Sequence record: OR352942.1
Length of the DNA stretch: 64,000 nt
Direction: 5' to 3' (one strand)
Source: Escherichia phage AV112
Of this stretch, positions 41,105 through 44,993 are shown one piece after another. A program made the translations under genes and the position numbers. Positions within the stretch are counted from its first letter, which is position 1. Each line of letters begins with the position of its first letter. The notes beneath the pieces were generated by a model, which was not told where the DNA came from, made no database searches, and saw only the letters and a list, made by a program, of their open reading frames with translations.

Positions 41105-41146
41105 TTAATTTGATGTGGTCATTATAACCACATCTTGTTAAAGCGT

Positions 41147-42835
41147 TTATGAAACAGTCATTACCGTAAATCGTCCAACTTTGCTCATTTGAAGATGTTG
41201 TCCATAACGTTGAGGGTCATGGTCTCGATGAGAGATAATGAACACATTAGTATTTTGTAAACTTCCAAGAATGGTATCTATAGCCTTAACAGCCTCAGAA
41301 TCGACAGCACCATCAAAAACCTCATCAAGAATCAGAGTGTTGATTTTAACACCAGAGACCTTTTCAGCAATATCTCGCCATGTAAACAACAATGCGATAT
41401 CGATACGTGCCTTTTCACCTTGACTAAATGAAGCATAACTAAAATCTTCACGACCACGTGATTTTATAGATTCATTGAATTCTTCGTCAATAGAAAACAC
41501 GTAATCAGCTTCCATGATTTTAAGATAATAGTTAATCTGCTTGTTGAACAGAGGCACATATTTTTTAATGATAGCACCTTTAATACCAGAATCTTTTAAC
41601 ATATCTGTGATAATACCACGATGGTATTTTTCAAGAACGATATCAGATTTTGTTTTAATGATTTTATCAAGTTCTTTTTGAAGCAAAGCTATCTCATCAG
41701 CATGGTCGATAAATTCCGCCGAGGCTTGTTCTATTGCAGCTTTAACTTTCTTAGCTTTATCAATAGTGGCAATCATTGCTTGTTTCTTGGTACGAATATC
41801 AGATGCAAGGTCCTGTTTAGTCTTAACATTAGCTCTATATTCGTCCACTAGGACACTCAGATTATCTCTGTGGCATGTAAGTTGCTCGAATGAGTGATTA
41901 CATTCGTGAAGCTTATCGGTAATCTTAGAGACAATAGGATCACCCTGGTGCAACTGCGATGCACAAGTAGGACATGTACCACCATCATGATACATCTTAA
42001 TAACTTTGTTATATGAGTCGATTTTAGATTTAATCAAGAATGCTTCTTGTCCGATCTTGTTGAATGCCTCAGTAGGGTCTTCGTCAAGAACGATATTAAG
42101 TAGACGCTCATTAGCTTCTTCAATTTCTGCTTTTAATGAACGAGCTTCTTTGGCTAGGTCGTCATACATATTCTGTAGACGCGCTACATTATCACCAGAT
42201 AATTTCTTTTGTCGTTCGATATTCTCGTTATAAATCTTAATTTGTTGGATAACACCATCTTTCTTGGCATCGAGAACTTGTCCCTGGGAATTAAGTTCTC
42301 GAACTTGAGACTTATTGATTTTATCCATTTCAGCGAGTGTGCCGACTTCTAAAAGGTCTTCGACAAGTTTTCTGCGAGCAGGGGTGCTAAGAGCCATGAA
42401 AGGGGTATACCCTGCCGTCCCAAGCACAACGATTTGTTTAAAAGACGCGTATGACATTCCGATGCTGCGTTCAAATTCTTCTTGGAAGTCACGACTGCTG
42501 GCAGATTCATCAAGACGAACACCGTCAACGGAGATTTCGAAAATATTGGGCTTTTGGCCACGTTTAATGAAGTATTTTTTACCATCGAATTCCATCCAAA
42601 GCTCAACTAAGAGCTCTTTCTTGTTCGTGCTATTAATGATTTGCCCTTTCTTAACATCACGAAATGGTTTACCGAAAAGTCCGAAAGTAATGGCTTCTAA
42701 CATCGTAGATTTGCCACCACCATTTTTACCAGTGATTAATGTCTTTTGGACTTTATCTAATTGGATATCGATAAAATTTTGCCCAACAGACATTATATTT
42801 TTATAACGAACACGATTTAATTTAAATGTTTTCAC
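41147..42835 (-). CDS. 46: recombination endonuclease subunit (Rad50/SbcC-like ATPase), 562 aa
   Basis: Walker A GKNGGGKST, long coiled-coil with CPTC zinc hook, Walker B/signature LILDEVFD. Confidence 0.9.
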   Translation of the reverse strand: MKTFKLNRVRYKNIMSVGQNFIDIQLDKVQKTLITGKNGGGKSTMLEAITFGLFGKPFRDVKKGQIINSTNKKELLVELWMEFDGKKYFIKRGQKPNIFEISVDGVRLDESASSRDFQEEFERSIGMSYASFKQIVVLGTAGYTPFMALSTPARRKLVEDLLEVGTLAEMDKINKSQVRELNSQGQVLDAKKDGVIQQIKIYNENIERQKKLSGDNVARLQNMYDDLAKEARSLKAEIEEANERLLNIVLDEDPTEAFNKIGQEAFLIKSKIDSYNKVIKMYHDGGTCPTCASQLHQGDPIVSKITDKLHECNHSFEQLTCHRDNLSVLVDEYRANVKTKQDLASDIRTKKQAMIATIDKAKKVKAAIEQASAEFIDHADEIALLQKELDKIIKTKSDIVLEKYHRGIITDMLKDSGIKGAIIKKYVPLFNKQINYYLKIMEADYVFSIDEEFNESIKSRGREDFSYASFSQGEKARIDIALLFTWRDIAEKVSGVKINTLILDEVFDGAVDSEAVKAIDTILGSLQNTNVFIISHRDHDPQRYGQHLQMSKVGRFTVMTVS

Positions 42836-43697
42836 TTAAATTTTTCCTCATGAATTCAGAAACTAAAGCCTGTAAAGAACTTTGTATAGGATATCCTAAA
42901 TTGACTAAATTTTTAGAAAAAGTCACATATTTAGGTTTGTTCATTTTAACCCATTCATCGTAAAGCATATCAAAATTTTCCCAATGATATCCTTTTCTTC
43001 TAGATTTCAAATGAGTGTCTCTAACTTTAGGATTTTTCCAACTGCGTGAAACTCCAGCCGATAATGATTCTCTATATTCGGCTGTTTTAGATATTTTACG
43101 ACAAGCATCCAAATGTTTTTGTTTATTAATAGGGTCACTAAACCACTTTTGGGTCATAATAGAGACGGTTTCTTTAAATTCCTTTGAACTTGTCATAATT
43201 CTGTGTTTCTTTAAATTTTCCGGATTTTTAAACCATGCTTTTAAAGCTTGACTAATCTTAATTCTATTATCCTGATTGGAATAGTATAATGTCATTTTTA
43301 TAGAATTAACTTTACAAACATTTTCGAATTCTAAAGAATACGCCTCGGCTATATTATTTAGTTCATGCGTTGTACAATTTAAATTAAATCGCCCGGTATA
43401 CATTCTTTGAAGCGCGTTAATCATCTTGTGGTTGCCAGTTTTTGCCAAAATGCTATGTGCAATAAAATGGTTATAATGACTTAAATGACACAAGTTCCAT
43501 TTACATGTTTTAAAATCTGGAAAAATAGATTTTGGTAGTATATGGTGAACCTGAGTCAGTCCTTTTACTTTATTAGTTGAATTAGTTTTTATAAAGTTTA
43601 AATACTCATCAAGTCCTTCCCACGAAGGGAAGGAGGTTTTAAGAATTTTATAAATTTGAGTTTCATAATCAGTCTTCGTCATTATACGCGTCCTCAA
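42822..43697 (-). CDS. freestanding HNH homing endonuclease with C-terminal NUMOD-like repeats (291 aa)
   Basis: HNH motif VHHILPKS...WNLCHLSHYNHFIAHS; three repeats of W(F/K)(K/S)(N/D)P...KH; overlaps the gene 46 start. Confidence 0.65.
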   Translation of the reverse strand: MRTRIMTKTDYETQIYKILKTSFPSWEGLDEYLNFIKTNSTNKVKGLTQVHHILPKSIFPDFKTCKWNLCHLSHYNHFIAHSILAKTGNHKMINALQRMYTGRFNLNCTTHELNNIAEAYSLEFENVCKVNSIKMTLYYSNQDNRIKISQALKAWFKNPENLKKHRIMTSSKEFKETVSIMTQKWFSDPINKQKHLDACRKISKTAEYRESLSAGVSRSWKNPKVRDTHLKSRRKGYHWENFDMLYDEWVKMNKPKYVTFSKNLVNLGYPIQSSLQALVSEFMRKNLSENI

Positions 43698-43926
43698 TAC
43701 ACGCTTCAGCCATTTTAAGAATAGAGCCAGGAGTATCGTTGTCCATTATATTAAAGCTAAATTCAACAGCCCAGTCGGTGCAGACATGAACTGCTTTAAC
43801 TTCATTACCTTCAACGCGTAATGGCTCAATCCAATACTTGATAGTGTTCTCGAATCCATCATCATCTTTAACGTCCATTTCAACTTCAAGCCTGAGTCCA
43901 GCATTGTTAAATTCATCTAAAGTCAT
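43669..43926 (-). CDS. hypothetical acidic protein (85 aa)
   Basis: ORF between gene 47 and the HNH gene. Confidence 0.4.
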   Translation of the reverse strand: MTLDEFNNAGLRLEVEMDVKDDDGFENTIKYWIEPLRVEGNEVKAVHVCTDWAVEFSFNIMDNDTPGSILKMAEACIEDAYNDED

Positions 43927-44942
43927 TGTGTTGCCTCAATATAAAGTTCGTTGGAATATTTGACCAGCGCTTCTCTGTCTTCGTCTGAGATATCTGGAAT
44001 CGCGTCAATATATTCTTTAATGATATCTTGAAGAGATTTAATCTCGATTTCCTGGTCGTCATCAGATTCAACACTGTTATCAACTTTAGAAACCATACGA
44101 AGAGAGTGAACTACTTTTTCAAGTTCAGATTCAAACTTAGTCAACTCTGAATCAATTTCTGATACTATAACACGTACGGCTAGATTAGTATAATCAGAAT
44201 AATTGATTTTGCCTTTAAACGGATAAGTGATTCGTCGATGCCATGTTGTTTCGTTAGGAATAAATTCCATACGTTCAACATCAGTGTCAAATACCCAAAA
44301 TCCGCGCGGGTCGTTCTCATCACCTGCAGTAAGGGTCCATGGTGTCCCAATATATTTGACGTTAGCAGCTTCAGAGATTGTGTGGAAGTGGCCGGACCAG
44401 ACTTGTTTATAGGTCTTTAAGAAATCAGGTTCAAGCCCATGAGACTTCATTCCTTTATAGAAATAAAAACCATTCAGTTCCCAGTGCCCAACACAATACG
44501 CTGCGGAAGAAGTCTTGATGTGCTCTAAGATTTCACCTGTATTTTCTTCGCACATCCATGGAACGATATCAATCAGACATCCGTCAAAATCTACAGTAGT
44601 TGGATGCTCGTAAATAGTAAAGTTTTCAAATTGAGTTAACAATTCAGAAACAGTGTTAGGTGTTATTGTATTCTTAAACGCCATGTCATGGTTTCCTATC
44701 GTGACATGAACGTGAATGCCTGCTTTAGAAATCATATCAACGATTTCACGATTGAATTCCATTGTACGATGTGTTATTGCTTTACGGACGTCAAACCAAT
44801 CACCGTACTGAATCCAAGTTTTAATCCCATGTTTCTTAGAGTATTCAATTGCTTGACGAATACCATCACGTTGAATATCTTGAACCCATGGGTCGTCTTG
44901 TTTGACTCCGATATGGAAGTCGCCTAAGTGCAAAATTTTCAT
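43923..44942 (-). CDS. 47: recombination endonuclease subunit (Mre11/SbcD-like phosphoesterase), 339 aa
   Basis: Calcineurin-like motifs LHLGDFH, GDWFD, GNHD; size equals T4 gp47. Confidence 0.9.
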   Translation of the reverse strand: MKILHLGDFHIGVKQDDPWVQDIQRDGIRQAIEYSKKHGIKTWIQYGDWFDVRKAITHRTMEFNREIVDMISKAGIHVHVTIGNHDMAFKNTITPNTVSELLTQFENFTIYEHPTTVDFDGCLIDIVPWMCEENTGEILEHIKTSSAAYCVGHWELNGFYFYKGMKSHGLEPDFLKTYKQVWSGHFHTISEAANVKYIGTPWTLTAGDENDPRGFWVFDTDVERMEFIPNETTWHRRITYPFKGKINYSDYTNLAVRVIVSEIDSELTKFESELEKVVHSLRMVSKVDNSVESDDDQEIEIKSLQDIIKEYIDAIPDISDEDREALVKYSNELYIEATQ

Positions 44943-44966
44943 ATTATTTCCTCATTAGTTAATTCA

Positions 44967-44993
44967 TTCTATCATCCGCTTATAAAGCAAAAA
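44967..44993 (-). promoter_or_regulatory. MotA-dependent middle promoter for gene 47
   Basis: Minus strand tttTGCTTTA - 11 nt - TAGAAT, immediately after the terminator U-run; same architecture as the gene 39 promoter. Confidence 0.55.

Follow-up and report, generated by a model that had tools for sequence, protein, structure and literature searches.

The window analysed here, a 64,000-nt stretch of Escherichia phage AV112 (OR352942.1), an RB69-like Mosigvirus, carries on its minus strand a gene assigned by homology to the homing endonucleases (homing endonuclease gene, HEG; HEG+ and HEG− denote phages with and without it). The gene is flanked upstream by gene 47 (43923..44942), which is Mre11/SbcD-like according to the Pfam model Metallophos and to the annotations in relatives, and downstream by gene 46 (41147..42835), which is Rad50/SbcC-like, starts with GTG and was recognised by the Pfam models AAA_23 and SMC_N and by the annotations in relatives. 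The initial annotation had correctly placed the ORF between these genes but overlooked gene 46.2 (43669..43926, minus strand), which encodes 85 aa (Pfam T4_Y03C, PF25721, 3.6e-44) and lies immediately upstream of the HEG. The 291-aa ORF described there is real; however, its TTG start at 43697 only marks the longest version in the ORF list (42822..43697, minus strand). The ATG at 43682 is the likelier start, since a GAGGA read directly in the sequence (43695-43691) precedes it by 8 nt and the same start is annotated in GenBank for AV113 and for the sister phages SQ17, PNJ-9, pEK20 and UKE1. With this start, the gene would span 42822..43682 (286 codons plus stop) and encode a protein of 286 aa. 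At its two ends it shares 14 nt with the end of gene 46.2 and 14 nt (42822-42835) with the start of gene 46, the latter exactly as initially reported. Judged by comparison with its relatives, the ORF is far beyond a chance reading frame, since the 14 copies examined are all intact and 776 representative homologues were found at E ≤ 1e-3.

By homology, the gene is a free-standing HEG of the T4 Mob (HNH) family. The homing-endonuclease identity proposed for the ORF was borne out by profile comparison, with matches to PHROG 655 'homing endonuclease' (1e-31) and PHROG 12434 'HNH endonuclease' (2.9e-12), and by tblastn, with identities of 36% to mobC (2e-18), 29% to T4 mobD (4e-13) and about 37% to the mobE-like gene of RB43 (9e-9). 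In addition to sequence homology with MobA-E, a free-standing position between conserved genes, a patchy presence and signs of spread were found, as is typical of Mob genes. The HNH (His-Me finger) core was located at residues 43-80 (43443..43556, minus strand; residues counted from ATG 43682) from invariant columns and from AlphaFold topology. It contains the motif QVHHILPKS...WN...H..H, whose residues H46, H47, N63, H72 and H76 are unchanged throughout alignments of 15 and 80 relatives, so that the HNH core claimed initially was confirmed. The AlphaFold models predict a beta-beta-alpha topology, in which a beta strand (43-47) ending in H46-H47 is followed by N63, a second beta strand (64-68) and a helix (69-80) with H72 and H76, with pLDDT >90 in the core and 90.5 for the domain model. 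The invariant residues correspond to the HNH/His-Me finger catalytic motif, with a His (general base) ending the first strand, a structural or metal-binding Asn and a His in the next helix. In the Pfam/NCBIfam scan, the protein itself matched no NUMOD model and, even at E ≤ 1, no curated HNH model (Pfam PF01844, PF13392, PF13395 or PF14279), its hits being noise below the threshold, GerD for example. Of the 80 relatives, 8 reach a Pfam HNH model at E < 0.01. Searches of PDB chain sequences with the single protein or with the 80-sequence profile gave nothing meaningful, and PDB fold searches gave no clear match to the protein.

The C-terminal region (42984..43262, minus strand) is predicted to be helical, with helix-turn-helix-like elements, and a motif scan identified in it three copies of the pattern S-x6-W-x1-2-(N/D)-P-x5-6-H, at W150, W180 and W215. 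Three repeats thus exist as first described, but the strict W-x-N-P form occurs only in the third, the first two reading W-x-x-(N/D)-P. The repeats are kept, in varied form, in homologues from Gelderlandvirus and Tequatrovirus, and the modelled helical region is presumed to be the DNA-binding domain. NUMOD3 (PF07460) is matched in the equivalent part of 23 of 80 family members; in the C-terminal part of the protein itself, no Pfam match to this module was found. Regarding its organisation, the protein resembles MobC, MobD and MobE, which combine an N-terminal HNH domain bearing HH...N...H with a distinct, presumably DNA-binding C-terminal part in about 210-290 aa. Their genes, like this one, stand free between conserved genes, lack a promoter of their own, overlap the ORF before them (PMC2988022) and are patchily distributed among close relatives. 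They differ in location, the Mob loci being nrdG/nrdD, nrdC.11/mobD.1 and nrdB/nrdA, whereas the HEG lies at 46.2/46 with the 5′ end of gene 46 as presumed target; in the repeats, which are not recognised as NUMOD3 in the HEG; and in that MobE is a proven nicking enzyme, whereas the HEG product is a predicted nuclease. A further likeness is offered by I-HmuI of Bacillus phage SPO1 (PDB 1U3E), a nicking homing endonuclease of the HNH type that binds DNA through modular helical elements and whose NUMOD-like Pfam domain is matched by 4 of the 80 relatives. However, I-HmuI is intron-encoded and the HEG free-standing, no sequence or fold match was detectable between the two, and I-HmuI belongs to His-Me finger group 2 and the T4 Mob proteins to group 1 (PMC5714182).

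The initial annotation had described the ORF as inserted between the two recombination genes. Junction mapping by BLAST and MAFFT against five HEG− Mosigviruses revealed instead a replacement, in which a cassette of 825 nt (42836..43660, minus strand) occupies the place of 214 nt of gene 46.1 (DUF5487), a gene annotated in PhAPEC2, Shf125875 and APCEc01. Alignments of HEG+ and HEG− phages indicated that the start signals of gene 46.1 are reused, since the GAGGA, the ATG and the first seven codons (MTKTDYE) of the HEG (43661..43695, minus strand) are exactly as in gene 46.1 of the HEG− relatives and homology stops at 43661/43660. The opposite order of events, with the HEG ancestral and gene 46.1 arriving later, was ruled out, gene 46.1 being common to T4 and RB69 and the HEG being far less diverse than its flanks. 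The site, initially considered notable for a mobile endonuclease, is not an unusual one, since free-standing endonucleases of T4-like phages are typically found as promoter-less cassettes between conserved genes, overlapping the upstream ORF, and the T4 mob and seg genes also embed promoters for the genes downstream (PMC2988022). Replacements of the SegH/Hef type and marker exclusion of the SegG/SegF type in T-even phages offer a parallel, in that an endonuclease gene takes the place of a different small gene of the relatives and a variant flank of the adjacent conserved gene is co-inherited with it (co-conversion). The Seg enzymes are of the GIY-YIG class, whereas the HEG is HNH, and for them experiments have established both the sites of cleavage and the exclusion. 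Overall, the gene is an ordinary member of a class known from T4, which fits the mob/seg picture and holds nothing conceptually new. The literature searched yielded no paper describing an endonuclease gene at the 46/47 locus, nor any test of cleavage or preferential inheritance for the HEG or the homologues nearest to it.

Gene 46 has, in its first 66 nt (42770..42835, minus strand), 13-14 cassette-linked substitutions, including ATG to GTG, S3T, Q12K, G19Q and P21F. All 14 HEG+ copies have exactly the same patch, which differs by 20% from the sequence of most HEG− phages and represents a candidate target or immunity region. The ribosome site of gene 46 is also altered, given that a GAGGA located within the HEG coding sequence (42845..42849, minus strand), 9 nt before the GTG, takes the place of the AAGAGAATACAT-ATG of HEG− phages. 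However, the part of the patch covering codons 12-24 may be an older hitch-hiking polymorphism rather than an immunity change, since it is also present in five HEG− phages that keep gene 46.1. These codons resemble Tequatrovirus and Gelderlandvirus sequence, while codons 4-11 are Mosigvirus-like, so that the patch is not clearly the product of plain co-conversion from some distant donor.

Homologues of the same clade lie directly upstream of gene 46 in two further genera, and for this reason the 5′ end of gene 46 is the likely endonuclease target. Those of Gelderlandvirus (Melville gp047, UoN_LG358_1; 55-56% identity) share with the Mosigvirus HEG the 14-nt read-through into gene 46 and a MotA-like site inside the gene, but overlap the end of gene 47, with neither 46.1 nor 46.2 in between. 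Those of Tequatrovirus (PhiZZ23 gp057, KIT03, Lutter; 45% identity) are clean insertions after codon 6 of gene 46, using the old gene 46 start and six codons and bringing a new gene 46 start, with gene 46.1 kept intact. The start signal therefore differs in each genus, as the Mosigvirus HEG uses that of gene 46.1, the rest of which is deleted. T4 itself has no endonuclease gene at the 46 locus, and the Tequatrovirus homologue is frameshifted in T2 and RB68, as expected late in the life cycle of homing endonucleases.

Upstream of gene 47, pattern searches identified a promoter-like site with a MotA box (TTTTGCTTTA, 11 nt, TAGAAT; 44966..44992, minus strand), which is preceded by a terminator-like hairpin (45014-44995) and is also conserved in HEG− Mosigviruses. 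The ORF had been placed upstream of the gene 47 middle promoter, a position that has to be corrected, since it lies about 1.3 kb downstream of this site (44992-44966). The predicted MotA-type promoter is the probable source of the transcript carrying the HEG; at its 5′ end, the cassette itself lacks a promoter. A second MotA-like site (ATATGCTTTA, 12 nt, TAAAAT; 42943..42970, minus strand) is found in the 3′ end of the HEG, 132 nt upstream of gene 46, and is, as a pattern match, a candidate middle promoter for gene 46. In the Gelderlandvirus homologues the site falls on the same codons, a conservation that is confounded by that of the amino acids. Between genes 47 and 46, the pattern searches detected no MotA-like site in HEG− Mosigviruses or in T4. 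Additionally, no T4 late promoter (TATAAATA) occurs within 17 kb of the HEG, no RNA hairpin was found that would mask the ribosome site in the manner of certain intron-encoded endonucleases (fold z-score +0.9), and a generic scan for sigma-70 promoters and terminators gave no enrichment over shuffles, except for the hairpin upstream of gene 47.

Among the records sharing at least 90% DNA identity, 9 of 154 (about 6%) carry the HEG, and the remaining 94% or so have gene 46.1 in its place. Presence of the ORF in all relatives, which the initial annotation had regarded as evidence against a mobile gene, was thus checked and does not hold. The 14 copies differ by 2-5 nt in 861, whereas their flanks differ by up to 139 nt in gene 47 and 82 nt in gene 46. 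Among the HEG+ phages of GenBank, nucleotide diversity amounts to 0.003 for the cassette and 0 for the 66-nt patch, compared with 0.067 for gene 47 and 0.042 for gene 46 outside the patch, and HEG+ flanks often have their closest neighbours in HEG− phages. The same pattern of near-identical cassette and diverged flanks was verified in six more copies from metagenomes. The order 47, 46.2, HEG, 46 is kept in every contig examined among those listed with the exact protein (8 of 24). In these comparative data the HEG shows signs of recent spread, the cassette being near-identical on backbones with far more divergent flanking genes. The free recombination of T4-like phages, together with a recent origin, could give a low cassette diversity without endonuclease drive.

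Taken together, these observations are best accounted for, with a probability of roughly 0.7, by a Mob-family HEG cassette that would have replaced gene 46.1 in a minority of Mosigviruses and spread by homing at the 5′ end of gene 46. In this proposal, the HEG would be transcribed by read-through from early promoters and from the MotA-type promoter upstream of gene 47. During co-infection with a cassette-less phage, the enzyme would nick or cut the DNA of the latter, either around the 46.1/46 junction or around the 5′ end of gene 46, and recombination-dependent repair of the T4 type would copy from the cassette-bearing genome, bringing in the HEG and the adjoining gene 46 variant together. Carrier genomes would be spared from cleavage by a site that is interrupted or recoded, and gene 46, lying beyond the added 0.6 kb, may regain middle-mode transcription from the internal MotA-like site. 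Such behaviour would have precedents in MobA and MobE, which are nicking enzymes inherited at high frequency (PMC2988022).

An active enzyme could also have its target in gene 46.1 or elsewhere at a distance, in which case immunity would come from the loss of gene 46.1 and the patch would be a hitch-hiking older allele. The occurrence of codons 12-24 of the patch in five HEG− phages with gene 46.1 intact, and thus independently of the HEG, is consistent with this, and SegG, which reportedly cuts away from its insertion site, was counted in its favour. The T4 Seg and Mob enzymes can likewise cut away from the insertion site (PMC2988022). However, a target of this kind is unlikely, considering that gene 46.1 is retained beside the Tequatrovirus homologue at codon 6 of gene 46, that neither 46.1 nor 46.2 separates gene 47 from the HEG in Gelderlandvirus, that the 5′ end of gene 46 is the only neighbour common to the three genera, and that 0 of 14 HEG+ genomes lack any of the 66-nt patch.

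The HEG may otherwise be homing-derived by descent but now an inactive or barely active passenger, which was acquired once and recently and then carried by ordinary recombination among co-infecting Mosigviruses. The flanking genes are indeed extensively shuffled in all Mosigviruses, HEG+ or HEG−, the Tequatrovirus homologue has already been frameshifted in T2 and RB68, and the frequency of the HEG is only about 6%. On the other hand, all 14 copies are intact with invariant catalytic residues, and among the aligned copies (7/7 intact) synonymous changes exceed non-synonymous ones (7 versus 4), with the HNH core untouched. Moreover, many independent transfers would have been needed quickly to place cassettes 2-5 nt apart in backbones whose gene 47 identity ranges from 88 to 99%, so that a passenger is decidedly unlikely. 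Domestication of the nuclease for phage benefit, by excluding competitors or attacking parasites or host DNA, is very improbable: defensive nucleases derived from HEGs are known, such as Odn of ICP1 (cited in PMC10448857), and cutting a competitor's gene 46 would give marker exclusion, but this is itself a classical outcome of homing that requires no separate function, about 94% of close relatives manage without the HEG, its homologues have decayed to pseudogenes in T2 and RB68, and its anatomy, a cassette at a specific position, is typical of selfish elements.

Beyond homing at gene 46, a tentative and rather doubtful extension would be that endonuclease, recoded gene 46 5′ end (ribosome site and GTG) and internal MotA-dependent promoter form a three-part mobile unit. 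If so, each homing event would rewire both transcription and translation of gene 46, which is the recombination nuclease processing the element's own breaks, and one clade would have followed this end of gene 46 across three genera, with a different start signal captured in each.

Should the enzyme prove active, the homing loci mapped in T-even-type phages would be joined by a further one, the 5′ end of gene 46. Natural controls are available in HEG− relatives with either of two gene 46 alleles and in intact copies from three genera, with the decayed T2 and RB68 copies as a further one, and target recognition, immunity and co-conversion are directly testable. For the engineering and comparison of therapeutic Mosigviruses, the HEG contributes to the local mosaicism of the region that holds the recombination genes, and it is of practical relevance in that it gives gene 46 a different start codon and ribosome site and possibly a different promoter. 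In the records of sister phages, the gene already carries the labels 'MobD-like homing endonuclease' or 'mobile endonuclease'.

Escherichia phage AV113 (OR352943.1), a Mosigvirus (RB69-like T-even phage) from Danish wastewater, matches the 4.1 kb around the ORF with 100% identity. All local genes lie on the minus strand and are transcribed in the order 47, 46.2, endonuclease ORF and 46, namely the Mre11/SbcD-like gene 47 (43923-44942; Pfam Metallophos), gene 46.2 (43669-43926; Pfam T4_Y03C, 3.6e-44) and the Rad50/SbcC-like gene 46 (41147-42835; Pfam AAA_23 and SMC_N). The initial annotation rightly placed the ORF between 46 and 47, although gene 46.2, which separates it from gene 47, went unmentioned. 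The 291-aa frame proposed there (42822-43697) is valid as the maximal ORF, with a TTG start, but the more likely start is the ATG at 43682 (286 aa), which is preceded by GAGGA 8 nt upstream and is the one annotated in AV113 and sister phages. The proposed 14-nt overlap was confirmed, the stop codon (42824-42822) falling 14 nt inside gene 46.

The endonuclease protein was left unrecognised by Pfam and NCBIfam searches. It matched PHROG 655 'homing endonuclease' (1e-31) and PHROG 12434 'HNH endonuclease' (2.9e-12), and tblastn detected homology to mobC (36% identity, 2e-18, N-terminal 60%), T4 mobD (29%, 4e-13, across 82% of the length) and an RB43 mobE-like gene (about 37%, 9e-9). An exhaustive HMMER search returned 776 representative relatives at E<=1e-3, chiefly via the N-terminal ~110 residues, and in an alignment of 80 drawn from these Y27, H46, H47, P50, N63, H72 and H76 were invariant; Pfam identified NUMOD3 in 23 of the 80, HNH models in 8 and an I-HmuI NUMOD-like domain in 4. 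The motif HHILPKS...N...H read by the initial annotation is present and, together with the PHROG and Mob matches, supports its designation as an HNH homing endonuclease; the three repeats also reported there exist as Trp-containing repeats (W150, W180, W215), but only the third carries a strict W-x-N-P. In AlphaFold models, H46/H47 end a beta strand (43-47), N63 precedes another (64-68) and H72/H76 lie in a helix (69-80), so that the predicted HNH core (domain pLDDT 90.5) has a beta-beta-alpha-metal topology; DNA binding presumably falls to the helical C-terminal region with the repeats. T4 Mob proteins are classed in group 1 of the His-Me finger nucleases (PMC5714182). On the strength of homology and motif, the product is assigned to the Mob family of HNH endonucleases, and it is highly probable that the ORF is a Mob-type homing-endonuclease gene. 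The names 'MobD-like homing endonuclease', 'mobile endonuclease' and 'HNH endonuclease' are already in use for it in several GenBank records; the AV113 record labels it hypothetical.

An insertion into the 46/47 operon had been proposed. An extra endonuclease gene is indeed found there, but alignment with five Mosigviruses devoid of it revealed an exchange rather than a plain insertion, with 825 nt (43660-42836) in place of 214 nt of gene 46.1, a 79-aa DUF5487 gene homologous to 46.1 of T4 and RB69. The left junction lies immediately past the gene 46.2 stop, and gene 46.2 and the endonuclease gene overlap by 14 nt. Because the latter retains the ribosome site, ATG and seven initial codons (MTKTDYE) of 46.1, the endonuclease uses the translation start of the gene that it displaced. 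The right junction is the gene 46 start codon, GTG in the window and ATG in the Mosigviruses lacking the cassette; the endonuclease TAA is formed by gene 46 codons 4-5, after a 14-nt run into that gene, whose own GAGGA (42849-42845) is located inside the endonuclease coding sequence. Neither a late promoter near the endonuclease gene nor a ribosome-site hairpin at its start was found. T4 mobA, mobC, mobD and mobE have been described as promoter-less cassettes overlapping the upstream ORF (PMC2988022), and the present cassette follows the same style.

All carriers also have in common a set of 13-14 substitutions at the 5' end of gene 46 (first 66 nt, 42835-42770), comprising ATG to GTG, S3T, Q12K, G19Q, P21F and silent changes, which amount to 20% divergence from most non-carriers; past this patch, gene 46 is no longer associated with the endonuclease. 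The codon 12-24 variant (K12, Q19, F21) is not exclusive to carriers, since it accompanies an intact 46.1 in five non-carriers, PTE-Eco05, G2285 and WFL6982 (1800-1870 of their respective loci, L018, L019 and L020), WFK and ESCO47, G2285 differing from the carrier haplotype solely in the start codon. This variant may be the allele of the first-invaded lineage, a resistant allele or a remnant after endonuclease loss.

The initial annotation would have been contradicted by an inactive ORF at the same place in all relatives; the ORF was found in only 9 (8 phages) of the 154 phage records with at least 90% DNA identity over the region. The exact protein occurs on 24 contigs, metagenome assemblies included, with the order 47/46.2/endonuclease/46 in all 8 places listed for it. 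Among GenBank carriers, the cassette had a nucleotide diversity of 0.003 and the first 66 nt of gene 46 one of 0; gene 47 (0.067) and the remainder of gene 46 (0.042) were more diverse. Likewise, in six metagenomic copies the endonuclease gene differed at 2-4 of 861 nt, whereas gene 47 showed 13-139 differences and gene 46 showed 24-82. The closest neighbours of carrier flanks are often non-carriers, and the body of gene 46 in AV113 has 99.0% identity with its counterpart in the non-carrier S143_2 versus only 94-95% with those in the carriers F2, SQ17, pEK20 and phiEC1. In PNJ-9, pEK20 and a metagenome locus (L027), gene 47 is about 88% identical to that of AV113 (111-139 differences in ~1 kb) and the endonuclease genes differ by 2-5 nt, a sharp mosaic boundary falling within some 300 nt 5' of the cassette. 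All 7 aligned GenBank copies are intact; of the changes among them, 7 are synonymous and 4 non-synonymous, and the catalytic core is free of any. Such low diversity on diverged flanks is what the recent spread of an element through diverged genomes would be expected to leave.

Homologues adjoin gene 46 in two further genera. In Gelderlandvirus (Melville, UoN_LG358_1), a 55-56% identical homologue directly separates 47 from 46 and likewise runs 14 nt into gene 46. In Tequatrovirus (PhiZZ23 and many others), comparison of the PhiZZ23 locus (L003, 2432-3320) with that of T4 (L015, 2470-2540) revealed a 45% identical homologue cleanly inserted after gene 46 codon 6, with 46.1 kept and the 9-nt TTTAAACTT repeated at both junctions; it takes the original GTG and six codons of gene 46 as its start, and supplies gene 46 with a new one (ATG-AAA-TCA-TTT-AAA-CTT) at its 3' end. 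The homologues in T2 (1932-2784 of its locus, L017) and RB68 (KM607004.1, 34387-35159) each consist of two ORFs separated by a frameshift and are therefore decaying genes. Since the gene 46 5' end is the only neighbour common to the three genera, this region, the 46.1/46 junction included, is the most likely target. T4 endonucleases of the Mob and Seg kind are able to act away from their insertion site.

The ORF had also been placed upstream of the gene 47 middle promoter, which proved incorrect: a MotA-box middle-promoter-like site (TTTTGCTTTA, 11 nt, TAGAAT; 44992-44966, minus strand) lies just upstream of gene 47, and the endonuclease gene is therefore ~1.3 kb downstream of it. This site is also kept in phages without the endonuclease, and is directly preceded by a terminator-like hairpin (45014-44995, minus strand; AGGAACTCTTCGGAGTTCCT then a T-run). 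A second consensus-matching site (ATATGCTTTA, 12 nt, TAAAAT; 42970-42943, minus strand) is contained in the 3' end of the endonuclease gene, 132 nt upstream of gene 46. Gelderlandvirus homologues carry a MotA-like site at the same codons and Tequatrovirus homologues ~270 nt before gene 46; none was found between genes 47 and 46 in T4 or in Mosigviruses lacking the endonuclease. The internal site is a pattern match with a chance expectation of perhaps 3-10%, and its conservation is confounded by that of the amino acids. In the window as a whole, 38 occurrences of TGCTT-N13-16-TANNNT were counted, against an expectation of 15.8; most are on the minus strand.

As its anatomy suggests, the endonuclease gene would be transcribed by read-through from upstream promoters and translated from the borrowed 46.1 start. 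Co-infecting genomes lacking it would be nicked or cleaved near the gene 46 start and repaired by the phage recombination machinery with the carrier genome as template, the recoded gene 46 start being co-converted along with the endonuclease gene. We put the probability that this whole scenario holds, with the enzyme still active and its target at the 5' end of gene 46, at roughly 0.7. With gp46 and gp47 counted among the exonuclease functions believed to act on breaks of this kind (PMC2988022), it is somewhat ironic that the candidate target should be the gene for gp46. The replacement of 46.1, the linked patch, the internal MotA-like site and the borrowing of starts in three ways in three genera are conventional for a Mob-type element. 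Unlike the carriers, T4 has no endonuclease gene 5' of gene 46, a locus absent from its fifteen endonuclease genes (PMC2988022, Table 1), and a literature search found no paper analysing a homing-endonuclease gene at the 46/47 locus.

Other endonuclease genes occur nearby. Some Mosigviruses carry, between 45.2 and 46 on the opposite strand, a second, unrelated putative homing endonuclease of 238 aa (F2, L005 674-1390; G2469, L021 474-1190; G2285, L019 3485-3745), with zinc-ribbon-like motifs and a weak Pfam HNH_5 match, and in these phages an endonuclease gene stands on either side of gene 46; AV113 lacks it, the corresponding stretch of the window being intergenic (41105-41146). In PhiZZ23, a 207-aa ORF immediately 5' of gene 47 (L003, 368-991) is annotated 'HNH endonuclease'; its sole Pfam match, falling just short of the cutoff, is to GIY-YIG (E 3e-4), which makes it a probable Seg-type rather than HNH-type endonuclease. 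If this ORF is an endonuclease, endonuclease genes lie on both sides of gene 47 in that phage.
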